Below are positions 1 through 13,039 of a stretch of 64,000 nt of DNA, piece after piece. Below the pieces are notes generated by a model. That model saw only the letters and a program-made list of their open reading frames with translations. It searched no databases and was not told the origin of the DNA. The position numbers and the translations under genes are program-made. Position 1 is the stretch's first letter; the number at the start of each line of letters is the position of its first letter. Origin of the DNA: Armatimonadota bacterium (GTDB taxonomy: Bacteria > Armatimonadota > HRBIN16); contig OY781964.1 of assembly GCA_963677485.1 (NCBI GenBank), positions 1,376,001 through 1,440,000 of the forward strand. The letters run 5' to 3'.

Positions 1-1
1 T

Positions 2-2521
2 CGTAATCTGGGCGATAAACCGGTGTTTGCCACCATCCGCATATACAGCGAAGTGGGCGGACCTGCGGAGTTCTTCTGGTACACCGCCACGCAGGGTGTG
101 CAGGCAGGGCATGAGGCCGCTTTTGTGGTGCCCGCGGGTCAGTGGGCGGAGGTTCTAGTTAATCTGCCCGCACTTGGCAGCAGCGGCGGCTTGAGACTTG
201 ATCCCCCTGGCAGCAGCGGCAAATGCATGGTGAACTGGGTTCACTTCGAAGAGCAAGTCGTCGTCAACCCTCCCGCCTGGACAGGCCCAACGATGAGCAC
301 ACCAGCCGCCGACTGGCTGACGGTGCGCAGCGGAAACACTTCACTGACCCATGACCCCACCCATTTCGGCCGGTTCTATGTCAATGTCAATGATGTGCAG
401 ACGGCCGCAGGCTGGGATCAGCCCTGGCTCTGCTTCCGCTCCACAACTGGTGCCCCGACATGGCTCAACCTGCTGGAAGGCGCGCACACCGTCCAAGCCA
501 TCACCAACGGCATCCAAAGTAAACTGATGGCCTTGGATACCGACGGGGCGATTTGGACATTTACCAACACCTTCACCCCGGGCGCGGTATCAGGCACCAT
601 CGCCTGTGCCAGCACCATCCGAGTAAACCAGACACGCCGCGCATGGTTTGTGCCCTGGATGGTGATGTTCCCCAAAGCGCGCGAGCGCGCGATGTTCCCA
701 GGCCTGGAGTATATGGACCCACTGGACACCTCCAGCAGCAAAGATGACATTGAAACCTGGGACTACCAGCGGCGCGCACCAGATCCTGAGAAGATGACCT
801 TCCCCATGCTGGCGATGCAGGCACAGAGCCGATGGATCGGTCTCTCCTGGGTCGACAACAGCAGATGCCAGCCGATTTTTGACAGTCCAGACCGAATTTT
901 CAGCTCTAACCTGAACTTCATGGGAGTCTTAGCCAGCAACTTCAACTCCAATCAACGCGACCCTGGCAGCCTGCTACCGGCTTTCGCCGAAGAGTTTGCC
1001 GCCAACACGGACATCACGCTGAACATGAACATCTCCGGTGGCAGCGGGCCCAACATGGTGCCGGCGATACAAACTTACGTGAAGCTGTATGGCATACCCC
1101 AGTTACCCAACCCAGGCCGCGACATGCAGAACTACGTCACATGGGCAGCCGGAGGCTGGTTGGACAGCAACATCCGCAGCGGCGATCTTTACCGGCACGC
1201 CACCTGGCCAGGTGCGAACAACTGGGCCCCTGCACCCGTTGGCGATGTGCCCTGGATGGAGCGTTGGCTGGCCGAGAACACCACCAACCCCACCCTCAAA
1301 ACACGGCTGCAGTCTGCTTCCGAAGGAGCAGCCGCACAGGTGATCGCAGCCGGAAGTGTGAACTTCCGTGGGGTCGCGCATGTGCAGTATCCCATCGCCT
1401 CACTTATCTTCACCGATGGGCTCAGCGGACCTGATATCGCGCTGGGCAGCGGCAACGGCCAGTATGCGCAGTTTACACCTGAGGGCACCGTGCTTTACAA
1501 CCCACCCGCCACTGGCAACGACCTTTCCCGAACGCACTGGGCGAAACATGCCAATGGCATGACTGCCGCGGTTTTGAAGAACGTGTGGGACGGGGTGCTC
1601 TACAGCGCCGACCCGACCCTGGGACAAAAGGCACTTACCATCACGGACATGCTGTCACAATATGACAATGAGGCCCCTCGTGGTGCGCAGACCTGGGAGG
1701 TACCGCTGCACACCCCAGACATTCTGGGCTCCGCTTACCTGGTCTACAGTAACCTGGCGGCGTATGAATACACCGGCAAGAAGCAGTACCTCGATAAGGC
1801 GATCGACTGGGCCTGGACAGGTGTGCCGTTCGTCTACCTGGTCAACCCGACGGCTGGCGCGATCGGCCCCTACGCCACCATTCCGGTGTTTGGCAGCACG
1901 CAGTTCACCTTGATGAACTGGATGGGTGTTCCGGTTCAGTGGTGTGGCATGGTGTATGCCGATGCCATCCGGCGTCTGCAGCGTTTCGACCCCACCGGAC
2001 CCTGGGAGATGCTCTGGAAGGGTATCACCATCTCAGGTATCCAGCAAAGCTTCCCCACCGGGCCCGACGCCACTCTACAGGGCACCTTGCCGGACTCGGT
2101 CAACCTGCGAGCCCAATCCCGCAACGGTGTGGCCATCAACCCCGGCACGGTGATGAGCTGCGCCACCAACTACTACCTGGGGATTCCGGCCTACGACTAC
2201 AGGATATACCGCAGTCTTGGGCTCATGGTGCATCTGCCGGGGCAATGGCTGCCTGGTGAGACCGTGATGAAGGATGAACTCACCTTCCGTGCGCAGCTCT
2301 GGACAGACGCGAAGATCATGGTGGTCGGGCTAAAGAGGTTCGGCATGGTGATGGTTGATGGCGTGGTGGTGCCTGTCGGACAGGGAGCCGCCTACGATCC
2401 AAATGGTCACCTGTTTGTAAACGCCACCAAAGGCATGCATACCATCAACATAAAACTCAATGCACAAACCACCCCGACAAACCCCGCGGGTGGGATATCA
2501 GTGCTCCAACGGAACAAATAA
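2..2521 (+). CDS. Large conserved hypothetical protein, probably carbohydrate-active; 5' end lies outside the window
   Basis: Frame is open from base 2 to TAA at 2519-2521. W/Y/P-rich, with a conserved-looking block PRGAQTWEVPLHTPDIL...YEYTGKKQYLDKAIDWAW resembling an (alpha/alpha)-barrel. Confidence 0.75.
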   Translation, partial: RNLGDKPVFATIRIYSEVGGPAEFFWYTATQGVQAGHEAAFVVPAGQWAEVLVNLPALGSSGGLRLDPPGSSGKCMVNWVHFEEQVVVNPPAWTGPTMSTPAADWLTVRSGNTSLTHDPTHFGRFYVNVNDVQTAAGWDQPWLCFRSTTGAPTWLNLLEGAHTVQAITNGIQSKLMALDTDGAIWTFTNTFTPGAVSGTIACASTIRVNQTRRAWFVPWMVMFPKARERAMFPGLEYMDPLDTSSSKDDIETWDYQRRAPDPEKMTFPMLAMQAQSRWIGLSWVDNSRCQPIFDSPDRIFSSNLNFMGVLASNFNSNQRDPGSLLPAFAEEFAANTDITLNMNISGGSGPNMVPAIQTYVKLYGIPQLPNPGRDMQNYVTWAAGGWLDSNIRSGDLYRHATWPGANNWAPAPVGDVPWMERWLAENTTNPTLKTRLQSASEGAAAQVIAAGSVNFRGVAHVQYPIASLIFTDGLSGPDIALGSGNGQYAQFTPEGTVLYNPPATGNDLSRTHWAKHANGMTAAVLKNVWDGVLYSADPTLGQKALTITDMLSQYDNEAPRGAQTWEVPLHTPDILGSAYLVYSNLAAYEYTGKKQYLDKAIDWAWTGVPFVYLVNPTAGAIGPYATIPVFGSTQFTLMNWMGVPVQWCGMVYADAIRRLQRFDPTGPWEMLWKGITISGIQQSFPTGPDATLQGTLPDSVNLRAQSRNGVAINPGTVMSCATNYYLGIPAYDYRIYRSLGLMVHLPGQWLPGETVMKDELTFRAQLWTDAKIMVVGLKRFGMVMVDGVVVPVGQGAAYDPNGHLFVNATKGMHTINIKLNAQTTPTNPAGGISVLQRNK

Positions 2522-2524
2522 AGC

Positions 2525-2553
2525 TAGACGAACACCAGGCGATGTGGTAAAAT
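2525..2553 (+). promoter_or_regulatory. Sigma70-type promoter for tRNA-Gln
   Basis: TAGACG, 17 bp spacer, TAAAAT with extended -10 TG, ending 11 bp before the tRNA. Confidence 0.6.
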
Positions 2554-2564
2554 ATCAACTGCAT

Positions 2565-2638
2565 TGCCTGGTCGTTCAACGGCAGGACAACGGACTTTGA
2601 CTCCGTTAATCGTGGTTCGAATCCACGCCGGGCAACCA
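2565..2638 (+). tRNA. tRNA-Gln (anticodon TTG)
   Basis: Cloverleaf: acceptor TGCCTGG/CCGGGCA, anticodon arm ACGGA-CTTTGAC-TCCGT, T arm CGTGG-TTCGAAT-CCACG, encoded CCA. Confidence 0.97.
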
Positions 2639-2909
2639 TTTCAGCCCCTCACACAGCTTCCCACTAGCCCTCTATATAAACCGATAATTCGTCATAAACC
2701 TTGTACATAACTAGTCGTAGGGGCGTCCCTTGTATGCTACGACAGTGTCTATTACAGTATGGGTTGACTTGAACTCAAGAGCAGTGCTTCAAAATAAGCA
2801 ATCGCCTGCACATTCGTTATCTAATATACTTTTATACACCACTATATATTGCATTGGCTCATTTTATGAGGGTATAATGAATGAACATTACGCTTCAAGT
2901 GAGGGTGCC

Positions 2910-3425
2910 ATGACTGATCAGACAGTTCCGTTTGAAACCACAATTCTTGAATTCGGCCCGCAGCGCATCATGGGGATGAGCGTGGTTACCGCCAACGCAA
3001 ATGGCGAGTGTGCTGCACTCTGGGGTAACGAAGGCGGTTTTGCCAACCGTATGAATGAAGTCAAACCGCCTAAAACAGGCGCACCCTGTTTTGGCGTCTG
3101 CCGGTGCGTTCCTGGCATCAGCGACGGCCGGTTTGAATACATCGCCGCGGTCAGCGCCAGTGCAGACGCCGTGTTACCTCAAGGCATGGTGGAACTCACC
3201 CTGCCAAAGGCGCAGTATCTGTGTATCACCGTGCCTGGTCTTGAACAGGTCGGTGCGGCTTGGAACTACATGGGCCAGTGGTGTACCGAGAACCCTGAGT
3301 GGCGCGGGTATTGCGATCAAAACGGCTGCGAATGCACCGAATACCCCGCGTTTGAATACTACACCTCGGAGTTCTTCACCACCAAAAAGCTCTATGTGTA
3401 TGTACCGATCCGTCCGAAGGAATAG
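2910..3425 (+). CDS. GyrI-like / AraC effector-binding domain protein
   Basis: GAGGG before ATG 2910. Motifs FEYIAAV, LPQGMVELTLPKAQY and FEYY...LYVYVPI are typical of GyrI-like small-molecule-binding domains. Confidence 0.8.
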   Translation: MTDQTVPFETTILEFGPQRIMGMSVVTANANGECAALWGNEGGFANRMNEVKPPKTGAPCFGVCRCVPGISDGRFEYIAAVSASADAVLPQGMVELTLPKAQYLCITVPGLEQVGAAWNYMGQWCTENPEWRGYCDQNGCECTEYPAFEYYTSEFFTTKKLYVYVPIRPKE

Positions 3426-3451
3426 GGGTTGGGTTACACGACGGGAAATGT

Positions 3452-3782
3452 AATCCACAGATTTCGCAGATTACGCAGATAAGATAATAACCGCACCGAT
3501 TATCTCCTAACTGCGACGGTTTGTAGGGGCGGGGTCTCCCCGCCCACACCAATTGTGATCCGTCCGATCCGTCTCATCCGTCCGATGCCCGGAATGTCTG
3601 AACCACGGATTACGCGGATGACACGGATGGGTTCGGATGGGAGGGGAATTGCTAAACATTTCGTTCCCCATCCGTGTTCATTCGTGTTCATCCGCGGTTC
3701 AAATGCGCCCCTAACGGGACGAGTAGGACAGGGATTTACGGTTCCCCATCCGTGTTCATTCGTGTTCATTCGTGGTTCAGAA
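3452..3782. repeat. Cluster of short intergenic repeats (nonamer-period tracts, a GTAG REP, a 40-bp direct repeat)
   Basis: cacagatttcgcagattacgcagat; gtaggggcggggtctccccgccc; gatccgtccgatccgtctcatccgtccgat; gttccccatccgtgttcattcgtgttcat at about 3663 and 3741. Confidence 0.75.
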
Positions 3783-3876
3783 AATGCCCTGCCCAAAATT
3801 CGCTTCAGGCGCAATATGGCAGAACCCGGTATACTATAGGATGTAGTGATATCTACGGAGGCATCGAGCGCAACAT

Positions 3877-4146
3877 ATGGCATTTCTTATTTACGTCATT
3901 TTTCAAGTACTCACATGGATGATCATCGTTCATGTGGTGATCTCTTGGATAACGCAAACGGGTGCCGCGCGGATATCTCCCTATCACCCGTTGGTCAGGA
4001 CCTTGAACAACATCGTTGACCCGATGCTGGCCCCGATCCGCAAATTGGTGAACCCAAGGGCCATGGGAGGTCTGGATATCTCTCCCATGATCGCCATTAT
4101 CATCCTCACCATCATTGAGAGTATCATCGTCAAAGTGATCCGATAG
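3877..4146 (+). CDS. yggT: YggT family membrane protein
   Basis: ISW...P.LAPIRKL....GGLDISPMIA signature; GGAGG upstream. Confidence 0.9.
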   Translation: MAFLIYVIFQVLTWMIIVHVVISWITQTGAARISPYHPLVRTLNNIVDPMLAPIRKLVNPRAMGGLDISPMIAIIILTIIESIIVKVIR

Positions 4147-4147
4147 A

Positions 4148-4630
4148 ATGAGCCACTCTCAACGACTAACCCCCATAGACATAGCTCACAAAGAGCTGCC
4201 AACTACACCTTTTGGTGGTTATAACAGAACCACCGTCGACCAATTTCTGGATGATCTGGGCAATGACTACGAGCAGATTATCCTGGAAAATGCCAAGCTG
4301 AAAGAACAGACGGCTGCGCTGCAATCAGAACTAGCCCGATACCGCGAAATGGAACAAACTCTGCGGGAGGCGCTTGTGCTGGCGCAAAGAACCGCGGATG
4401 AAACACGGGCAGCAGCGCATAAAGAGGCGGAGATCATTCTGCAAAATGCAGACCTCCGCGCAGCACAACAGATCAAGGACCAACAACAACAAATTGAGCA
4501 ACTCAAAAGCATCAAACAAAAGATAGCTTTCGAGCTCCGGGCGCATATGAACGTGATCCAACAGTGGCTCGATGCCACCAACGACACGCCATCGGCAGAC
4601 GCCCCACCAGATGTCCAACCTCAAAATTAA
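4148..4630 (+). CDS. divIVA: DivIVA domain coiled-coil protein
   Basis: N-terminal LTPIDIAHKELP..FGGYNRTTVDQFLD followed by a coiled coil; follows yggT. Confidence 0.88.
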   Translation: MSHSQRLTPIDIAHKELPTTPFGGYNRTTVDQFLDDLGNDYEQIILENAKLKEQTAALQSELARYREMEQTLREALVLAQRTADETRAAAHKEAEIILQNADLRAAQQIKDQQQQIEQLKSIKQKIAFELRAHMNVIQQWLDATNDTPSADAPPDVQPQN

Positions 4631-4889
4631 AATACGCGTCACAGCGCGGGCGGGAAGAAACGCCATCGACCGATGGGACCCGCAGACAGATACCCTGCAC
4701 CTGAGAGTGGCAGCAGTGCCCTCGGACGGACAGGCGAATGAGGCCATCAGGCAATTGCTTGCCAAACAGTTGAGCGTCCCGAAAAGCCGCATCACCTTAG
4801 TTGGTGGTGCCACGAGTCGCAACAAAACTTACGAAATAGAGGACATGGAGCAACTACCAGAAAAGATACTGGGGCTCCAAATTGAATGA
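4611..4889 (+). CDS. DUF167 (YggU/UPF0235) family protein
   Basis: LRVAAVPSDGQANEA...L.VPKSRI.LVGGATSRNK signature. Confidence 0.88.
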   Translation: MSNLKIKIRVTARAGRNAIDRWDPQTDTLHLRVAAVPSDGQANEAIRQLLAKQLSVPKSRITLVGGATSRNKTYEIEDMEQLPEKILGLQIE

Positions 4890-7282
4890 CAGAACAAAAC
4901 AGCACACCAGAACCCGCTGATAATATCAGCCAGCCGGAAACTCCGGAGACGAATGAACAACCAGAAATGGTTGAAGCAACCCCAGAGCAAGCGAATACAG
5001 ATATCCAAAATGACGAAAACATAATCGACGCAGAAGATACGTCCGCTGATCAAGATATGTCCGATGATTCCGACTTGTCTGAATTATCTGGCAAGTCTGA
5101 TGAATCTGACCTGACCGACTTATCTGACAAGTCTGATGAATCTGAACTGACCGACTTATCCGACTTGTCTGAGACGCCTGACAGCGTAGATGCATCCACG
5201 GGACAGGTCTACGATACCCCTAAACTCAACCAGCGACAGCTACACCTAATGGAGCGCGTAGAACAGCGCATTCTCATCGGTGGGGCAGAGCCGCCGCATG
5301 TCAGCATCATGTCCAACTCCGTGGGAGCACCCCCTGATGCTATCCGGGCGATGGCCGCCCTCCTGGTCAAACGCGGCAAGATTTATATCATGGCCGACGA
5401 TCTCTACATCCACGCTCTCAGTTTCGAAGAGGTGGAAAGCCAGATCCGCGGTTATATCCAGAAAAATGGATCTGTCACAGTCAGCCAGTTGCGAGACTTT
5501 TTGGGCACAAGCCGACGGTTTGCCCATCCGCTGCTGATGCTGTTTGAAGTACGCAATCCAAACTCGAATCCCCGTCCCATGGGCGACAGCTATGCACCAG
5601 ACGACGAGAATGATGATGATGGTCCGATGCCCACATGGGAAGAATACCAGCAGTCACTGCTCTCCTCGCGCGACCGTGTCCGCATGGAGCGAACCGCAGA
5701 GCGTTCGAGCGGAGGCTATGGCCGTCCTCGAATGAATGCTGATGGCCCATCGGCAGGCGGCGGACGCAGCTTTGATCGTCCTCGTGACGGCGGCGGTGCC
5801 CGACCCAGCTTCAACAGAGACGATCGTCCACAAAGAAGCTTTGACGGACCACCAAGAGATGGCGCACGGCCAGCGGGCGGCGGTTACAACCGCGAAGGCG
5901 GCGGCGACCGACCCAGTTTCAACAGGGACGACCGACCACGAAGAAGCTTCGACGGACCACCAAGAGAAGGCGGGCGGCCCCGCGACGCAAGCTATAACCG
6001 TGAAGAAGGACGTCCAGCAAGAGAAGACGGACAGCCAGCAGGCGGCGATCGGCCCAGCTTCAATCGGGACGACCGGCCACGCAGAAGCTTTGACGGACCG
6101 CCAAGAGAAGGCGGACGGCCAGCAGGCGGCGGATACAACCGCGAAGGCGGCGGCGACCGACCCAGTTTCAATAGGGACGACCGACCACGCAGAAGCTTTG
6201 ACGGACCGCCAAGAGAAGGCGGGCGGCCAGCAGGCGGTGGTTACAACCGCGAAGGTTGCGGCGACCGACCCAGTTTCAATAGAGACGACCGACCACGCAG
6301 AAGCTTTGACGGGCCACCAAGAGATGGTGCACGTCCTAGCGGAGGCGGGTATGGCGGACGACCTGCAGGCGGCGGTTACAACCGTGACGGCGGCGGCGAC
6401 CGACCCAGTTTCAATAGAGACGACCGACCACGCAGAAGCTTTGACGGACCACCAAGAGATGGTGCGCGTCCTAGCGGTGGCGGGTATGGCGGGCGACCAG
6501 CAGGCGGCGGCTACAACCGTGACGGCGGCGGCGACCGGCCCAGTTTCAACAGGGACGACCGACCACGCAGAAGCTTTGACGGACCACCAAGAGATGGTGC
6601 GCGTCCAAGCGGAGGCGGATATGGCGGACGACCAGCAGGCGGCGGTTACAACCGTGACGGTGGCGGCGACCGGCCCAGTTTCAACAGGGACGACCGACCG
6701 CGCAGAAGCTTTGACGGACCACCAAGAGATGGTGCACGTCCTAGCGGTGGCGGGTATGGTGGGCGACCTGCAGGCGGCGGTTACAACCGTGACGGCGGCG
6801 GCGACCGACCCAGCTTCAATAGAGATGACCGACCGCGCAGAAGCTTCGACGGACCACCAAGAGATGGTGCACGTCCAAGTGGAGGCGGCTATGGTGGACG
6901 ACCAGCAGGCGGCGGTTACAACCGTGACGGCGGCGGCGATCGGCCCAGCTTCAATCGGGACGACCGACCACGCAGAAGCTTTGACGGACCACCAAGAGAA
7001 GGTGGACGTCCTAGTGGCGGCGGCGGTTACAGTGGTGGCGGACGTCCCAGTGGCGGCGGTGGTTACAGCGGTGGCGGACGTCCCAGTGGCGGCGGCGGCT
7101 ATAGTGGTGGCGGACGCCCAAGTGGCGGCGGCTACAGCGGTGGCGGACGCCCAGGTGGCGGCGGCGGTTACAACCGCGATGGCGGCGGCAGGCCGTCAGG
7201 TGGGGGCTTTAATCGAGGCCCGCGCCCTGATGACCGCGGCGGTCCGGATCGTAGGCCAGGCGGCCCTCGTAAACCAGAGTAG
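4886..7282 (+). CDS. Protein with acidic N-terminus, SelB C-terminal winged-helix-like domain and a long RG/GY/P-rich repeat tail
   Basis: ATGA-coupled to DUF167. VTVSQLRDFLGTSRRFAHPLL resembles the SelB WH4 motif; 10 copies of RPSFNRDDRP follow. Confidence 0.75.
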   Translation: MTEQNSTPEPADNISQPETPETNEQPEMVEATPEQANTDIQNDENIIDAEDTSADQDMSDDSDLSELSGKSDESDLTDLSDKSDESELTDLSDLSETPDSVDASTGQVYDTPKLNQRQLHLMERVEQRILIGGAEPPHVSIMSNSVGAPPDAIRAMAALLVKRGKIYIMADDLYIHALSFEEVESQIRGYIQKNGSVTVSQLRDFLGTSRRFAHPLLMLFEVRNPNSNPRPMGDSYAPDDENDDDGPMPTWEEYQQSLLSSRDRVRMERTAERSSGGYGRPRMNADGPSAGGGRSFDRPRDGGGARPSFNRDDRPQRSFDGPPRDGARPAGGGYNREGGGDRPSFNRDDRPRRSFDGPPREGGRPRDASYNREEGRPAREDGQPAGGDRPSFNRDDRPRRSFDGPPREGGRPAGGGYNREGGGDRPSFNRDDRPRRSFDGPPREGGRPAGGGYNREGCGDRPSFNRDDRPRRSFDGPPRDGARPSGGGYGGRPAGGGYNRDGGGDRPSFNRDDRPRRSFDGPPRDGARPSGGGYGGRPAGGGYNRDGGGDRPSFNRDDRPRRSFDGPPRDGARPSGGGYGGRPAGGGYNRDGGGDRPSFNRDDRPRRSFDGPPRDGARPSGGGYGGRPAGGGYNRDGGGDRPSFNRDDRPRRSFDGPPRDGARPSGGGYGGRPAGGGYNRDGGGDRPSFNRDDRPRRSFDGPPREGGRPSGGGGYSGGGRPSGGGGYSGGGRPSGGGGYSGGGRPSGGGYSGGGRPGGGGGYNRDGGGRPSGGGFNRGPRPDDRGGPDRRPGGPRKPE
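5795..7190 (+). repeat. Coding tandem repeats: 108-bp (36 aa) and 135-bp (45 aa) units, then about 30-33-bp GGGRPSGGGGYS units
   Basis: Five amino-acid-identical 45-aa units start at about 6263, 6398, 6533, 6668 and 6803, with synonymous differences between copies. Confidence 0.95.
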
Positions 7283-8072
7283 CCTCGCCAGTTAACGTCA
7301 GTGTGCCATCGGGCATACGCTCGACAACGGCCTCACCACCCTTACTGCGAACCCGCACTAAGGGACCGGTGAGGCCGTTGTCCATAGAGACCACAGCCGC
7401 GGCACAGGCTCCTGTTCCGCAACCCAGCGTTTCGCATGCCCCTCGCTCCCAGATGCGCACCTGAACATCGGTGTCGCTCAGCCGTTTGACACACATCAGG
7501 CTGGTTTTTTGGGGGAATAAGGGGTGATTTTCCACCGCCGGCCCTATTTCATAGAACAACTCATCATCCGGCAGCTCATCACAAAACCAGACGGCATGGG
7601 TAGAGCCAGTGGACACGGCATGAAGCGTCAAATCGTGCGTTCCCACTTGGATGTGCAGTGGGGCCGCTGTCTCTGCCAGATATGGCACTAAAGCGGGCTC
7701 GTAGCGTGCGACACCCATATCTACCGTCACACGGCCATCATCGTGTATCACGGCCTTCTTCGGACCATCACTCGTCTCGATGGTCAACTGGCTGGCCTGC
7801 ACCAATCCATGTTGTCTTGCCCAAGCCGCGGTGCATCTCATGCCGTTGCCGCAGATATCCTCGGTGCCATCGGGGTTGTGCATCTTCATGAACACGCTGT
7901 CAGGTGTGGAGCCGCGTGATATCACCAGCAGCCCGTCGCTGCCCACTCCATAGTGCCGGTTACAGGCATATAGCGCGAAAACCGATGTTTCCAGCCCAGC
8001 GAGCTCCTCGGCGGCGCAAACCACGAAGTCGTTACCTGTCCCCACCATCTTGCTGAAACGCAGTTCCATCAT
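7209..8072 (-). CDS. dapF: Diaminopimelate epimerase
   Basis: FSKMVGTGNDF, NPDG...CGNGMRC, ERG..ETLGCGTGACA. Confidence 0.95.
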   Translation of the reverse strand: MMELRFSKMVGTGNDFVVCAAEELAGLETSVFALYACNRHYGVGSDGLLVISRGSTPDSVFMKMHNPDGTEDICGNGMRCTAAWARQHGLVQASQLTIETSDGPKKAVIHDDGRVTVDMGVARYEPALVPYLAETAAPLHIQVGTHDLTLHAVSTGSTHAVWFCDELPDDELFYEIGPAVENHPLFPQKTSLMCVKRLSDTDVQVRIWERGACETLGCGTGACAAAVVSMDNGLTGPLVRVRSKGGEAVVERMPDGTLTLTGEATLVYEGRLAYDPDRRGHQGAGLD

Positions 8073-8081
8073 ATACCCCTG

Positions 8082-8723
8082 TTAGTTCAGAAATCCCGCC
8101 CGACGCAAACTCTCTTCACTGACACTGTTGGATGTGCTGCCACCAAGCAGTCGCTCCACATAACGGCCAAGCACATCGGTCTCAATGTTCACAGAACTAC
8201 CGACACTACGTTCAGCCAACACCGTCTCCCGCCAGGTCGTGGGGATAATAGCAACCGTAAATCCAAAAGTTGTCAGATCAGCCACGGTCAGGCTCACTCC
8301 ATCTATGCAAATGGAGCCTTTCGGCACCACATAACGCAAGGCGTCCGGCTCGATGTCTACACTCAAGCGTACGGATACACCTTCATCCATCAGCCGTCGG
8401 ACCGTGCCAATTGCGTCCACGTGCCCCTGCACAATGTGCCCGCCCATGGGCTCACCTAGTCTCACGGCATCTTCCAGGTTCACACGGTCGCCCGCCTTTA
8501 GCAGTCCCAGTGTAGTGCGCCGCATGGACTCCGGCACCGCATCAAAGCTGAGGCTATCTGTGGTGATGTCGGTGACCGTTAGACATGCCCCGTTGATGGC
8601 GATGGAATCACCCAGCTTGGCCAGATTTCGCAACTTCTCACTGCTGATCGTCACCCGCATCCCTGCCTGAGCACTGGTGATCGCCTTCACACGGCCAACC
8701 TCTTCAATGATACCTGTAAACAC
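8082..8723 (-). CDS. ribE: Riboflavin synthase (alpha chain)
   Basis: MFTGIIEE N-terminus, GDSIAINGACLTV, GGHIVQGHVD. Confidence 0.96.
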   Translation of the reverse strand: MFTGIIEEVGRVKAITSAQAGMRVTISSEKLRNLAKLGDSIAINGACLTVTDITTDSLSFDAVPESMRRTTLGLLKAGDRVNLEDAVRLGEPMGGHIVQGHVDAIGTVRRLMDEGVSVRLSVDIEPDALRYVVPKGSICIDGVSLTVADLTTFGFTVAIIPTTWRETVLAERSVGSSVNIETDVLGRYVERLLGGSTSNSVSEESLRRAGFLN

Positions 8724-9838
8724 TACATCTTCTCCTTATGGCCATGCGGCACTAGTCCGCTGATCATCGTATCAGCTCCATATCGCCTCGTGCTCACATC
8801 ATCCAGCCTTAGTGCATGGGCGATGTTCGCCGCACCATGTCCCTTGATGGCGGGGATACCCTGGCCTCCGAGTATCAGTGGCGCGATGAAGGCTGTCACC
8901 CGGTTGGCTAGACCGTCGTCCAACAATGAGCCCAGCAGCGACCCACCCCCGTCGCACATCACCGCGGTGATACCCCGTCTGTGCAGCTCTTGAAGGGCAA
9001 ACCGTAGATCCAGGCGACCGTCTGCAGATGCAGGAATGGTGATCACCGATACACCCAACGCTTCCAGTTGCGCCATTTTCGAAAAGCTCCCACTGGGCGA
9101 ACACAAAACCCAGAGAGGGGCTGAGGATACATCGCATAACTTTGAGGTCAGGGGGATACGCAGATTGGTATCTACCACGACTCGGACCGGGAATCTGGGC
9201 GGGTTCACTGACCGGTGCCGGACAGACAGCGTGGGGTCATCGGCTAGAACTGTGCCGATACCCACCATCAACGCGTCATGATGAGCGCGCATCAGATGCG
9301 CCTGCGAGCGTGCTTGCTCGCCCGTGATCCAGCGACTGCTGCCGTCCGCGGCTGCGATACGGCCATCCAGGCTGCAGGCGAATTTGGCGGTGACCCAGGG
9401 GCGGTCATGCGTCTGCGCGAACACAAACATCTCGTTTAGACTTTGAGCCTCAGCCTCACGCACACCACATTCCACCTCGATGCCTGCCTGACGCAGCTTC
9501 TCAAAGCCACTGCCGGAGACTTTTGGGTTAGGATCCTGCATCGCCGCGACCACACGGCTGACTTTTGCCCGGATCAGCGCATCTGCACAGGGGGGTGTTT
9601 TTCCAGTGTGGCTGCACGGCTCAAGACTGACATAGGCCGTGGCCCCTTTCGCCGCATTGCCGGCTTGACTCAGAGCTTCCACTTCAGCGTGCGCCATACC
9701 CGGTCGATGGTGATAACCCCCACCCACGATCTCGCCGTTTTTCACTAGAACACACCCGACCATGGGGTTTGGAGCCGTGAACCCCCGTTTCGCCAGGCTC
9801 AACGCCCGGCGCATATACTGGGTGTCGGTTTCAGTCAT
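8723..9838 (-). CDS. ribD: Bifunctional riboflavin deaminase/reductase
   Basis: PNPMVGCV, HAE, LEPCSHTGKTPPC, SLDGRIA. Confidence 0.96.
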   Translation of the reverse strand: MTETDTQYMRRALSLAKRGFTAPNPMVGCVLVKNGEIVGGGYHHRPGMAHAEVEALSQAGNAAKGATAYVSLEPCSHTGKTPPCADALIRAKVSRVVAAMQDPNPKVSGSGFEKLRQAGIEVECGVREAEAQSLNEMFVFAQTHDRPWVTAKFACSLDGRIAAADGSSRWITGEQARSQAHLMRAHHDALMVGIGTVLADDPTLSVRHRSVNPPRFPVRVVVDTNLRIPLTSKLCDVSSAPLWVLCSPSGSFSKMAQLEALGVSVITIPASADGRLDLRFALQELHRRGITAVMCDGGGSLLGSLLDDGLANRVTAFIAPLILGGQGIPAIKGHGAANIAHALRLDDVSTRRYGADTMISGLVPHGHKEKM

Positions 9839-10202
9839 TCGGCTTCTTACCGCAGATGTCCTTACTGCCCCGCAATAACTCGCGCTGCGCATCAACGTAG
9901 TTCTTCAAGGACTCACGCAGATCAATCACCGCGCAGGCCAGCATGCCAATTAGCAGCAGGCACATCACAAGCACATAGATGCCAAATGACAACAAAGCTG
10001 TCAATGGCGATCCGATAACGGCCGGTTCAGTTACCAACTTCGAGCACCAGACCAAGAGCGCCATCAGTAAAACCAGGCAGACACTGCCCCACACCCGAGC
10101 CCGGTATTGAACAAGCGACATCATATGGCGTTGAAACGACCACTGCACAACCAATATATACAGCAGCCCAACTATACCTACAGTGATGGCGATTGCGGTC
10201 AT
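9831..10202 (-). CDS. Hypothetical membrane protein (about 3 TM helices)
   Basis: AAGGAGG upstream, hydrophobic helices, overlaps the ribD start. Confidence 0.7.
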   Translation of the reverse strand: MTAIAITVGIVGLLYILVVQWSFQRHMMSLVQYRARVWGSVCLVLLMALLVWCSKLVTEPAVIGSPLTALLSFGIYVLVMCLLLIGMLACAVIDLRESLKNYVDAQRELLRGSKDICGKKPND

Positions 10203-10253
10203 TCGTAGTGCCTCCTTATGAGTCAGCGCATATATGCTAAGTCGTGTTTCGGT

Positions 10254-10341
10254 GTCGTAGGGGCGTCCCTTGTGGGCGCCCTAATCGTTGTTGATTCGAT
10301 AGTTTTGGTTTTAAGGCGCCCACAAGGGACGCCCCTACGAC
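10254..10341. repeat. Inverted pair of GTAG-family REP elements
   Basis: Perfect 27-bp IR gtcgtaggggcgtcccttgtgggcgcc / ggcgcccacaagggacgcccctacgac; related copies at about 2715, 3522, 29355 and 50159. Confidence 0.85.
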
Positions 10342-10379
10342 TTACATGCCTACGGACGCAGTTTGTGTGCAATCACTAC

Positions 10380-10502
10380 TGGTCTACAGACCGCGCCAAT
10401 CTTGTTCCTGACACAGATCCCCATGGCTATCCGCCAGACCGGCGCGGTCTCGAGCCTTCTGCAACCGCTCACCTACGCACAGACCGCCCCGGACTTAGCC
10501 AA
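10380..10502 (+). repeat. Dispersed palindromic repeat (agaccggcgcggtct / agaccgccccggac family)
   Basis: Near-identical copies at 36377-36540 (inverted), 38860-39330 and 55228-55285. Confidence 0.85.
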
Positions 10503-10539
10503 ATGACGGGACCGTATTCGTCAACACATGGCCGCCTGG

Positions 10540-11214
10540 TTAGCGGGCTGATCCAGCAAGTGAACGCAACTCGCTTAAGGCGAATTCAAAGCCCTGGGGA
10601 TGTCCAAAGAGGGCAGAACCAGCCACAAACATGTCCGCACCTGCATTGGCAATGCTGCCGATGGTGGTGCTGTTTACTCCGCCGTCCACCTCCAGCCAAG
10701 CTTTAGATTGGGCGCCATCCAGCATCTCTCGGGCGGCGCGGACTTTAGGGATGCTCTGAGGAATGAAGCTCTGCCCGCCAAATCCCGGATTCACGGTCAT
10801 GATGAGTATCAGGTCGATGTCGCCCAACACATTTTCCAGTATGCAAAGCGGGGTATGTGGATTGAGGGCCACACCCGCTTTGGCTCCGCTCTGCCTGATC
10901 ATGCTTAGCACGCGCTGAAGGTGCGTGCAGGCCTCTGCGTGAACTGTGATGATATCAGCTCCGGCTCTCGCAAAATCAGCCACGTAACGGTCAGGATTCT
11001 CAATCATTAAGTGTATGTCGAATAATGCATTTGAGTGAGGCCGGAGAGCACTCACCACACCGGCACCAAAAGTAATGTTGGGAACAAAATGACCATCCAT
11101 CACATCGAAGTGCAGCAACTCCGCACCGGCCTCCGCGCTCATTTTGGCGTCTTGCCCAAATGCAGCAAAGTCGCTAGAAAGTAAGCTTGGAGAAAAGCTT
11201 ATTGGATTTGCCAT
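10540..11214 (-). CDS. rpe: Ribulose-phosphate 3-epimerase
   Basis: HFDVMDGHFVPNITFG, MTVNPGFGGQ, EVDGG. Confidence 0.97.
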   Translation of the reverse strand: MANPISFSPSLLSSDFAAFGQDAKMSAEAGAELLHFDVMDGHFVPNITFGAGVVSALRPHSNALFDIHLMIENPDRYVADFARAGADIITVHAEACTHLQRVLSMIRQSGAKAGVALNPHTPLCILENVLGDIDLILIMTVNPGFGGQSFIPQSIPKVRAAREMLDGAQSKAWLEVDGGVNSTTIGSIANAGADMFVAGSALFGHPQGFEFALSELRSLAGSAR

Positions 11215-11215
11215 A

Positions 11216-13039
11216 TTACATCTTTACCTCTTTTTTTAGTTCTTCATTAATGAATACGCGGATGACAGCAGATCCGGTGAACTGCAGCGAAACCGCTTGA
11301 GACTTGCCGGAGTCGCACTCCTGCTCCAATGGAATGGAGGTGCCGTTATCGTCTGTCACCTCAACACGAACCATAGAAGTCGGATTACTGCTTGACGGTA
11401 CCTTCACATTCAGTGTGATATCTTTGGTGGCTGATTCACCGGAAGGGGTATTTGATGTACTGTCGGAACTATCTGTCGATGCCCCGTCCGATCCATCGGA
11501 TTTCGCGTCTCCGACCACCGGTTCGCCTTCCTTCAGCCCAAGCAACACAGAGGAATCCCGTAAAGCGGTAGATCCGGGCTGCGGCCGCTGCCATCGGACC
11601 ACACCGCCATCAGAATTCAATAGATCACCCACATTTTTCAACTCAGCCTTCAGTCCCAAGGCCTGCAGCTTAGAAACGGCGTCCTGTTGTGAAAGACCAA
11701 CTAATGAAGGAATGCGTACATCGCGGCTGCCGCTGCTTACCCACACACGCACTTCACGGCCTTGCTTCAGAGTTCGCCCAGCCAGCGGTTCTTGCTTGAA
11801 TACAGTATCCAACGGCGCATCATCACTGGGGGCCTCTTGCACGACCACAAACTGCAGCCCTAAGGACTCCACGACCTTCTTCGCTTCATCTGTCCGAACC
11901 CTTATTAACGCCGGAACTGTGGCTTCACCAGGTCCCTTTGTCATGTATACGAACACTCCAATGAAGGCGGCTAGAATCAAAGCCAGTAAAGTACCCAACA
12001 CCACTAAGGCTGTTTTCAATACATCATTTCCTTTGCGTTCCTCGTATACATCCACATCTTCCGTGTCATTGTGCAGGCTAATGCTATCTGTGGCTGCTAG
12101 CTTCTTTTTCGGCACATGCGATTTGGGAACTACTGGTTTCGCCTTTGCCAACTCCGGGCTGGCCGTATCACCCTTCAAGGGCGTATCCATGGGTGACCAG
12201 CGCAAGCTGCCCCCACTTTTGATCGCCAGATTGACCCGACGTAGGTCTTCCACAAGTTCCGAGGAGTTTTCGTATCTGTCCTTCGGATTCTTTTGCAGGC
12301 ACTTCAGTACGATGCCCTCAAGAGCACGAGGCACGCCAGGATTCTGGTTTCGCGGTGATGGTGGAGGGGTGGATTTATGCTGTTGGGCGACATCATGCGC
12401 ATAGTCTGCCGAGTAAGGAACCATTCCCGTCAGCATTTGATAAAGCAGGCATCCGAAACTGTAGATGTCGATGGCGACGGTAGGATCTCCCGGCTGGAAA
12501 TACTCCGGTGCCATGTATGGCGCAAAATGTTCATACCACTTCATACCGACCGTCTGGTCGTGCCGTAATGCCGGGGCTATACCGAAATTGACAAGTTTGA
12601 GAACACCCTCTCCCGGCTGCATGACCACATTTTGGGGGCAGAGGTAGCCGTGAACCACTCCCGCTTGATGTAGGCTTTCGAGTCCTTGAGCGATCCAGAG
12701 CCCGATTTCCGAAGCAGTACCAGGCGGAAGCTGCGTGTTAGGAATAAACTGCTTAAGGTCGATCCCCCTACGCACATGCTGCGTGACCGCCAGTATCTCG
12801 CCATCATCATCAACGACATCAAGGACCTGTGAAACTCGAGGGCCACCCACGACCTGTACCGATTGCAGCAGCTCCTTCAACATGGCACTTGAGCTACAAC
12901 TGGTGATCTCCTCACAAGGCGCGATCACGATCACATCTTGATGATGCTCGAGGTCGCCTGCCCGGTAATAAGTAAAGAGGGGCGATGCTGAGAACCGTTC
13001 CTTAATCTCATACCTGCCATTTATCACGCGATTGATCAT
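11216..13039 (-). CDS. PknB/Stk1-like Ser/Thr kinase-fold membrane protein with 2 PASTA domains; catalytic motifs degenerate
   Basis: YMAPE, DIYSFG.LLYQMLTG.VPY, CLQKNPKDRY, a TM helix and PASTA repeats, but HGYLCPQN and NFG replace HRDxKPxN and DFG. Confidence 0.85.
   Translation of the reverse strand: MINRVINGRYEIKERFSASPLFTYYRAGDLEHHQDVIVIAPCEEITSCSSSAMLKELLQSVQVVGGPRVSQVLDVVDDDGEILAVTQHVRRGIDLKQFIPNTQLPPGTASEIGLWIAQGLESLHQAGVVHGYLCPQNVVMQPGEGVLKLVNFGIAPALRHDQTVGMKWYEHFAPYMAPEYFQPGDPTVAIDIYSFGCLLYQMLTGMVPYSADYAHDVAQQHKSTPPPSPRNQNPGVPRALEGIVLKCLQKNPKDRYENSSELVEDLRRVNLAIKSGGSLRWSPMDTPLKGDTASPELAKAKPVVPKSHVPKKKLAATDSISLHNDTEDVDVYEERKGNDVLKTALVVLGTLLALILAAFIGVFVYMTKGPGEATVPALIRVRTDEAKKVVESLGLQFVVVQEAPSDDAPLDTVFKQEPLAGRTLKQGREVRVWVSSGSRDVRIPSLVGLSQQDAVSKLQALGLKAELKNVGDLLNSDGGVVRWQRPQPGSTALRDSSVLLGLKEGEPVVGDAKSDGSDGASTDSSDSTSNTPSGESATKDITLNVKVPSSSNPTSMVRVEVTDDNGTSIPLEQECDSGKSQAVSLQFTGSAVIRVFINEELKKEVKM

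Follow-up and report, generated by a model that had tools for sequence, protein, structure and literature searches.

A SelB-derived winged-helix module joined to a long repeat tail in an Armatimonadota bacterium without selenocysteine machinery

The gene described here lies in a stretch of 64,000 nucleotides (nt) from an Armatimonadota bacterium (GTDB lineage Bacteria; Armatimonadota; HRBIN16; assembly GCA_963677485.1, contig OY781964.1, forward-strand positions 1,376,001 to 1,440,000), hereafter the window. The open reading frame (ORF) at 4886-7282 on the forward strand encodes 798 amino acids (aa) followed by a TAG stop, and it is a functional, lineage-specific elaboration of the hairpin-binding module of SelB. 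The winged helices of SelB are a textbook case of a protein domain that serves one RNA signal alone, the selenocysteine insertion sequence (SECIS). The product is interpreted, at about even confidence, as a cytoplasmic RNA-binding protein of a selenocysteine-less Armatimonadota lineage, built on the mRNA-hairpin-binding module of SelB (the third winged helix, WH3, and a fourth one, WH4, that lacks its wing) and on a multivalent disordered tail. Four parts can be told apart in the protein: an acidic head (aa 1-108), a folded region (about aa 110-223), a linker (aa 224-290) and a tail (aa 291-798). They are arranged as follows:

4886-7282, + strand: whole ORF, 798 aa
4886-5209, + strand: acidic disordered head, aa 1-108; net charge -32; a 36-nt D/S/E/L repeat in 3.2 copies at 5059-5172
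5231-5413, + strand: WH3-like winged helix, aa 116-176; three helices and a beta hairpin in the AlphaFold model (predicted local distance difference test, pLDDT, >90); aligns to WH3 of Moorella SelB
5414-5554, + strand: WH4-like three-helix bundle without wing strands, aa 177-223; SelB signature LRD-x-LG-x-SRR-x-x-x-PLL
5555-5755, + strand: conserved linker, aa 224-290; predicted helix at aa 251-275 (nt 5636-5710)
5756-7279, + strand: DRP/GGY repeat tail, aa 291-798; net charge about +34; 41 evenly spread F/Y; 10 RPSFNRDDRP cores
6266-6940, + strand: five tandem 45-aa units, identical as protein, with synonymous differences only
7004-7172, + strand: GGRPSGGGGYSG units, 36-nt period, 4.8 copies

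The folded region was compared with SelB by profile, by sequence and by predicted structure. Indeed, (i) the SelB-wing_3 family (PF09107) matches aa 190-217 with an expectation value (E) of 7.5e-7 and 29 bits, against a cut-off of 23.2 (33.7 bits for the same gene in the whole-genome search), the match spanning profile positions 2-29 of 47 and leaving the wing hairpin part (30-47) unmatched, (ii) in a phmmer search of the Protein Data Bank (PDB), aa 111-220 align end to end with WH3 and WH4 of Moorella SelB (2ply, E 6.1e-8), further matches being 1lva (2.2e-7), 1wsu (8.3e-7) and Escherichia coli 2pjp (2.5e-3), and (iii) the AlphaFold model, made from a 31-sequence alignment (pLDDT 86.9, predicted template modelling score 0.77), shows WH3 as a complete winged helix and WH4 as three helices without wing strands. 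When this model was searched against the PDB with Foldseek, 11/11 matches at E <= 0.001 were SelB WH3-4 chains, with template modelling (TM) scores of 0.65-0.77; the best of them reached TM 0.74-0.77, a root-mean-square deviation (rmsd) of 1.6-2.7 Å and E down to 3.6e-7. Only WH3 and WH4 are represented, aligned to residues 132-240 of a 258-aa Moorella fragment; WH1 and WH2 are missing. By these comparisons and models, the folded module is homologous to the SECIS-binding WH3-4 unit of SelB and is predicted to fold alike. A reading of the DNA made earlier from its letters alone (the sequence-only reading) had proposed a stand-alone SelB winged-helix domain; the SelB homology has held up, profile, solved-structure sequences and predicted fold being in agreement, and the single domain has given way to a tandem of WH3 and a wingless WH4.

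The remainder of SelB is not found in this protein. Neither GTP_EFTU nor any other GTPase family matches the 798 aa (Pfam, E <= 1), as the sequence-only reading had stated for GTPase motifs; SelB-wing_2 has no match in the ORF in the same type of scan, unlike in the SelB proteins of the sister genus described below, and the protein has no NCBIfam match. In alignment, the canonical wing segment T-R-R-x-G-D-x-R-x-L is absent from this ORF and from all other wingless stand-alone forms of Armatimonadota, and the WH4 helix motif R-D-x-x-G-x-S-R-[KR]-x-x-x-P-L-L is kept, its Arg being the sole invariant column in 31 sequences. A second model that included the linker also had no strands past the last helix and added one helix at aa 251-275, of moderate confidence (block-mean pLDDT about 53-69). 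In SelB, it is WHD3 and WHD4 that bind the SECIS RNA (PMC4605307). Compared with the mRNA-binding domain of SelB from Moorella thermoacetica (1LVA, 1WSU, 2UWM, 2PLY) and E. coli (2PJP), the tandem fold and the helix order are alike, at about 23% identity over 108-118 aligned columns and TM 0.74-0.77. Unlike SelB, the ORF protein has neither the EF-Tu-like GTPase domains D1-D3 nor WH1-2, its WH4 has no C-terminal wing hairpin, its disordered head, linker and tail add up to about 680 residues, and its host has no selenocysteine system.

This last point could be examined on a host genome that consists of one contig of 5.22 Mb and is 97.4% complete by marker genes. ORF 4886-7282 is the only PF09107 match of the genome. 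No genomic match over cut-off was obtained for selB (TIGR00475), for which only other GTPases were matched, below cut-off, or for selD; selA had no match in the genome at all, no tRNA-Sec was among the 60 tRNAs predicted by aragorn, and RF01852 had no match over its gathering score. The organism is without selenocysteine machinery and its lineage no longer makes selenoproteins, which answers the question, raised in the sequence-only reading, of whether selA, selB, selC and selD accompany the gene. Since the host has no selenocysteine system, the ligand of the module cannot be a SECIS element.

The gene is under selection over most of its length. The ratio of nonsynonymous to synonymous substitution rates (dN/dS, Nei-Gojobori) was computed between the window's genome (G000) and the ortholog in another genome of the same genus, G001, which is also a single contig. 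It is 0.015 for WH3-4 (dS 1.0), 0.016 for the linker, which is 98.7% identical to that of G001, and 0.074 for the tail (aa 301-460); the head, 65% identical with its charge kept, stands at 0.45. Strong purifying selection acts on WH3-4, on the linker and on the tail, and the gene is functional. Within the tail, the five 45-aa units (aa 461-685) have one and the same protein sequence, and any two of them differ by 6-13 nt, all at codon position 3. Across the five, 19/135 nt columns vary and at least 20 substitutions are needed, all synonymous; 25.9% of the possible single changes in the units being synonymous, the probability of an all-synonymous outcome is 1.9e-12. The ortholog of G001 (811 aa, 11 cores in a different arrangement) gives a replicate, its three copies of an identical 46-aa unit showing 12-17 differences, nearly all of them in third codon positions. 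Furthermore, the region 3800-7400 is reproduced with 0 differences, repeat unitigs included, in another study's DNA run (31/31 pieces at least 99% alike). The identity of the five units at the protein level, their synonymous divergence and the attribution of both to selection rather than to assembly had all been put forward in the sequence-only reading and agree with these data. As a separate observation, the linker that follows WH4 matches the fold in its degree of conservation, and its helix at aa 251-275 may be a partner-binding motif.

The tail (about 510 aa) is composed of G (29%), R (20%), P (14%) and D (11%). All 10 RPSFNRDDRP cores are present (10/10), as counted in the sequence-only reading, at a spacing of 36-47 residues, and the GGRPSGGGGYSG array is terminal. 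The same reading called the tail RG/GY-rich: the long repeat tail of R, G and Y is there, and the RGG type is not, since 1 RGG stands against 16 GR, 44 RP, 22 DR and 18 GGY motifs, next to 41 F/Y. The tail is DRP/GGY-rich rather than a classical RGG box. The N-terminus is acidic, as had been noted; the net charges of head and tail are -32/+34 in G000 and -34/+33 in G001, both proteins being nearly neutral overall. Opposite and balanced charges of head and tail are conserved between the orthologs.

No paralogous tail was found in the genome by tblastn without low-complexity filtering, which returned only generic Gly-rich stretches (a secretin-like protein, a pilus-assembly-like protein, the G/F region of DnaJ and simple repeats). 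When two tail units were searched against a collection of 5.8 billion clusters, five matches were obtained (E 1.7e-6 to 4.4e-4), and 5/5 are RNA-handling proteins: three pseudouridine synthases with an S4 domain (P0151, P0153, P0154), a translation initiation factor IF-2 (P0152) and a DEAD-box helicase (P0155). Each of them bears arrays of nearly the same short motif, as in P0153, where GGDRPRPSFNREGGDRP arrays correspond to GGGDRPSFNRDDRP in the ORF tail. Regularly spaced aromatics and Arg (41 F/Y and 20% R in the tail) are a shared trait; the folded partner domain differs, and the ORF tail, unlike the others, is paired with a charge-matched acidic head. The likeness may be read, from the sequences, as a recurrent type of extension on RNA-handling proteins and is not proof of common descent. 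The tail may also resemble glycine-rich RNA-binding proteins and the low-complexity domains of the FUS type. In their own right, P0151-P0155, which are of unrelated sources, carry long N-terminal arrays of the DRP-x-[FY]-NR-[ED]-GG type, apparently a widespread and undescribed kind of disordered extension on RNA- or ribosome-handling enzymes.

The closest relatives include a canonical SelB as well as smaller forms. The sister genus g2, of the same family, has a canonical SelB with a GTPase and WH1-4, the WH3-4 of which is 38-47% identical to the ORF protein; its selB adjoins selA (seen in L028), Zn_ribbon_8 and DUF6785 and is not at the divIVA locus, where g2 has neither DUF167 nor a winged-helix gene. 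In the genus of the window, g1, the long form follows yggT-divIVA-DUF167 in 3/3 genomes, the copy of G002 ending at a contig end after 96 aa. In genus g3 (G004), also of this family, a complete stand-alone WH3-4 gene of 135 aa, with no head or tail, lies at the same place. G011 has both selA and selB; G001, G002, G004 and G006 have neither. Homologs without the tail and the synteny, named in the sequence-only reading as grounds for its refutation, are largely what the search for the same architecture and synteny brought up: head and tail were found in g1 only, every relative outside the genus being without the tail, and the divIVA/DUF167 synteny was seen in g1 and g3 only.

A scan of species genomes with a single protein query returned 21 loci, of which 19 were examined: the G001 ortholog, one canonical SelB, one gene of the G004 type and 16 small wingless stand-alone genes. 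The stop-to-stop frames of these 16 span 78-183 aa, or about 110-135 aa from a plausible start. Like the ORF protein, the members of this small family have no GTPase, a wingless WH4, the GAPPDAIRAM and S-R-R motifs and selA-less genomes (selA in 0/10 genomes with the small form); unlike it, they are small proteins without head or tail in neighbourhoods without divIVA. Indeed, these neighbourhoods are varied, and DivIVA, YGGT and DUF167 were found in 0/44 neighbouring proteins at 13 loci. The upstream regions of four loci looked unrelated and gave no conserved RNA element by the small-family genes, no systematic comparison having been made. At two loci of the family (L044:3662-4924 and L048:3664-4911), the stand-alone WH3-4 gene is followed directly by one for an FHA-domain protein.

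Across the phylum, an even sample of 201 genomes was surveyed, and 110 had a WH3-4 match. By length of the matching frame, selA is present in 83/95 genomes at 500 aa or more (the 12 without it include G000, G001 and degenerate forms), in 4/6 at 300-499 aa and in 1/9 below 300 aa, the exception being a 450-contig assembly; among genomes with no WH3-4 match to this query, it is present in 16/91. Within the phylum, genomes that lack selA repeatedly carry reduced proteins derived from SelB. Ten loci of the survey were inspected and include proteins of WH1-4 only, of about 260-280 aa, in G141, G125, G188, G063 and G150 (L058, L063, L059, L064 and L062, respectively), winged WH3-4 proteins of about 140-150 aa in G179 and G084 (L060, L061), full-length forms with a degenerate P-loop region in G026 and G194 (L067, L066) and a truncated form in G127. 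The first nine of these genomes are without selA.

In a tree of 68 WH3-4 modules (131 columns, long branches), 14 small genes form a clade supported at 100/100 that leaves out ORF 4886-7282, and the g1 pair and the g3 gene stand on separate long branches; a single clade of all 17 stand-alone rows is not rejected by the approximately unbiased test (p-AU 0.254). In the ESM Atlas, a cluster of 119-aa proteins has Armatimonadota as its commonest phylum, and such short proteins, known as 'hypothetical proteins', are listed there only as unnamed clusters. Among 1.84 billion representative proteins, one close relative only was found, a 204-aa fragment at 95% identity; of the remaining matches there, many are the C-terminal end of proteins of about 620-680 aa and many others are shorter (12 sequences inspected). 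A word-indexed search with aa 105-290 among proteins of 438-1397 aa gave no match in a collection that is evidently without the G001 ortholog. No paper on stand-alone SelB winged-helix proteins was found in the literature searched, subscription journals being mostly outside it.

The ORF is the last gene of a tight operon formed by yggT, divIVA, DUF167/yggU and the ORF itself. Its ATG at 4886 overlaps the TGA stop of DUF167 as ATGA, a junction read directly, so that the sequence-only reading, which saw an apparent translational coupling there, is supported as regards this overlap. The start MTEQN is common to G001, G002 and P0001. The neighbours are:

3877-4146, + strand: yggT (YGGT family membrane protein), first gene of the operon; PF02325, E 3.9e-19; same order in G001, G002 and G004
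4148-4630, + strand: divIVA; PF05103, E 3.5e-33
4611-4889, + strand: DUF167/yggU; PF02594, E 2e-22; start set, by ortholog alignment, at the MSNLK codon common to the orthologs; TGA at 4887-4889
7209-8072, - strand: dapF, convergent, the boundary of the locus and outside the system; PF01678, E 1.8e-44; same arrangement in G001

Metatranscriptome contigs from three studies, 95-99% alike, cover the operon from yggT on to nt 5826, including nt 4883-5826, and one RNA-library contig spans 4668-5046 and so bridges the DUF167/ORF junction. The repeat region, about 5857-7400, is mostly uncovered or oddly joined in these contigs, which says nothing on the transcription of the tail. The contigs show presence in RNA libraries of close relatives and are not proof of transcription. 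A scan of 3300-7600 for promoters and terminators gave nothing that exceeds the shuffled expectation, and an Rfam scan of 1-12000 had a tRNA-Gln as its sole match.

Some further observations concern the locus itself. In contigs that represent close relatives in RNA libraries (runs X15 and X16), one extra A stands behind 4867; it would change the frame of the final codons of DUF167/yggU and displace its stop, immediately ahead of the overlapping ORF start. The 3' ends of the ORF and of the convergent dapF overlap by 74 nt (7209-7282), and by 68 nt in G001. An alternative-frame ORF (5736-7295, + strand, 519 aa) runs through the repeat region as a by-product of stop-free GC-rich repeats; the 4886 frame is favoured over it because the variation is at codon position 3 only. 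Upstream of yggT, the intergenic region 3426-3876 holds two direct copies, of about 37 nt, of CCCCATCCGTGTTCATTCGTGTTCAT... at about 3666-3703 and 3745-3781, and the 26-mer core of this element has 28 (+) and 33 (-) copies genome-wide at <=4 mismatches. This distribution suggests a dispersed family resembling repetitive extragenic palindromic elements, which also yields spurious ORFs (3500-3883, minus strand).

In the explanation proposed for the protein, WH3-4 would dock on a stem-loop RNA other than SECIS, and the Arg/Asp/Pro/Gly/Tyr repeat tail would add many weak RNA contacts, from which a chaperone-like or bridging activity could result. The acidic head may mask the tail within one molecule (autoinhibition) or bind the tails of other molecules; head-tail pairing between molecules could lead to self-association with RNA into condensates. 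The gene would be co-expressed with yggT, divIVA and yggU, and this is no evidence of a role in division. Condensate formation may occur, as may septal or polar localisation; a role as condensate scaffold could find indirect support in the conserved charge balance of head and tail and in the presence of the same repeat type on RNA-handling proteins. A bolder version, which is considered rather doubtful, holds that, besides SECIS, this module of SelB recognises another RNA target unconnected with selenocysteine and was hence kept after the loss of selenocysteine in at least five reduced architectures across Armatimonadota; in this genus it would have become a charge-balanced diblock protein nucleating RNA-protein condensates on a hairpin ligand, a counterpart in bacteria of FUS-like proteins, with a sequence-specific anchor.

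Several points weigh against the proposed RNA-binding function or against the breadth of the evidence for it. The wing of WH4 is missing, so that RNA may be bound less well or in another way; DNA and protein are the more frequent ligands of winged helices; and no RNA target was found in this analysis. The tail has a single RGG motif, and its matches are of low complexity with modest E-values and may reflect convergent composition. The RNA-library evidence comes from contigs assembled for close relatives, and DNA may be present in libraries of this kind. The genomes of the survey are kin and many are incomplete metagenome-assembled genomes, so that the counts overstate independence. Lastly, by the tree the gene may or may not share one origin with the small stand-alone family, the 100/100 clade of the latter standing against the p-AU of 0.254.

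Other explanations were weighed against that of an RNA-binding protein. The ORF product could be a DNA-binding or nucleoid-associated protein, its tandem winged helices binding DNA and its Arg-rich tail coating or bridging it. The Foldseek matches next after SelB are DNA-binding winged-helix regulators (MntR, IdeR and GntR-type), and Arg/Gly-rich tails are generally known to be able to bind any polyanion. However, these regulators match at E >= 0.03, TM 0.29-0.42 and rmsd > 11 Å, versus E down to 3.6e-7 and TM 0.74-0.77 for SelB, the retained signature is that of SelB WH4, and like tails are on RNA-handling, not DNA-handling, proteins in 5/5 matches; a DNA-binding function is considered unlikely. 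That the gene is without function, as a decaying selB relic or an artefact of assembly in the repeat region, is hardly credible. The genome has lost its selenocysteine system and short-read assemblies do break in repeats, but dN/dS is 0.015-0.074 across WH3-4, linker and tail, the unit variation is synonymous only (P 1.9e-12) and replicated in G001, the sister genus has its selB at another locus, two single-contig genomes each hold the gene intact, and every repeat piece was reproduced with 0 differences in the other study's run. This reading was effectively refuted by the selection tests.

A scaffold of cell division or of the pole, recruited by DivIVA, YggT or YggU, with the tail as a polar or septal matrix and the winged helices as a protein adaptor, would account for the tight yggT-divIVA-DUF167-ORF operon, with its stop/start overlap and its retention in 3/3 g1 genomes and in G004 of g3, and for the RNA-library contig that bridges the DUF167/ORF junction. 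Against it, DivIVA, YGGT and DUF167 are not found at the 13 small-family loci (44 proteins scanned), and the sister genus g2 has divIVA without DUF167 or the ORF. The gene ylmG, which we take to be a yggT homolog, presumably lies in the ylm operon. A precedent against deriving function from this neighbourhood is YlmH of Bacillus subtilis: its gene codes for an S4 RNA-binding protein and belongs to the ylm operon, which follows the dcw cluster on its downstream side, and the protein acts in ribosome rescue (PMC11317155). Both ylmH and the ORF are putative RNA-binding genes in a conserved divIVA neighbourhood, and YlmH has its role in translation (PMC11317155); their folds, S4 in YlmH versus winged helix here, are unrelated, and the analogy is one of genomic context with no homology claimed. 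Polar or septal localisation, entertained in the sequence-only reading, has little comparative support because the synteny is confined to g1 and g3, being absent at 13/13 small-family loci and in g2. A scaffold of division is considered quite improbable.

In summary, the protein is an experimentally accessible candidate for an RNA-binding protein that forms condensates in bacteria and has a defined folded anchor, and its complete sequence occurs in public runs labelled with organism names, so that material for experiments may exist. It offers a clean natural example of selection on a disordered repeat, in which peptide units are identical and the DNA differences synonymous only, and of a head that evolves fast in sequence yet keeps the charge that balances the tail. 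For the SelB family, a module that is under strong purifying selection without selenocysteine and recurs in trimmed forms would point to a second, unrecognised ligand or to repeated exaptation of a hairpin reader.

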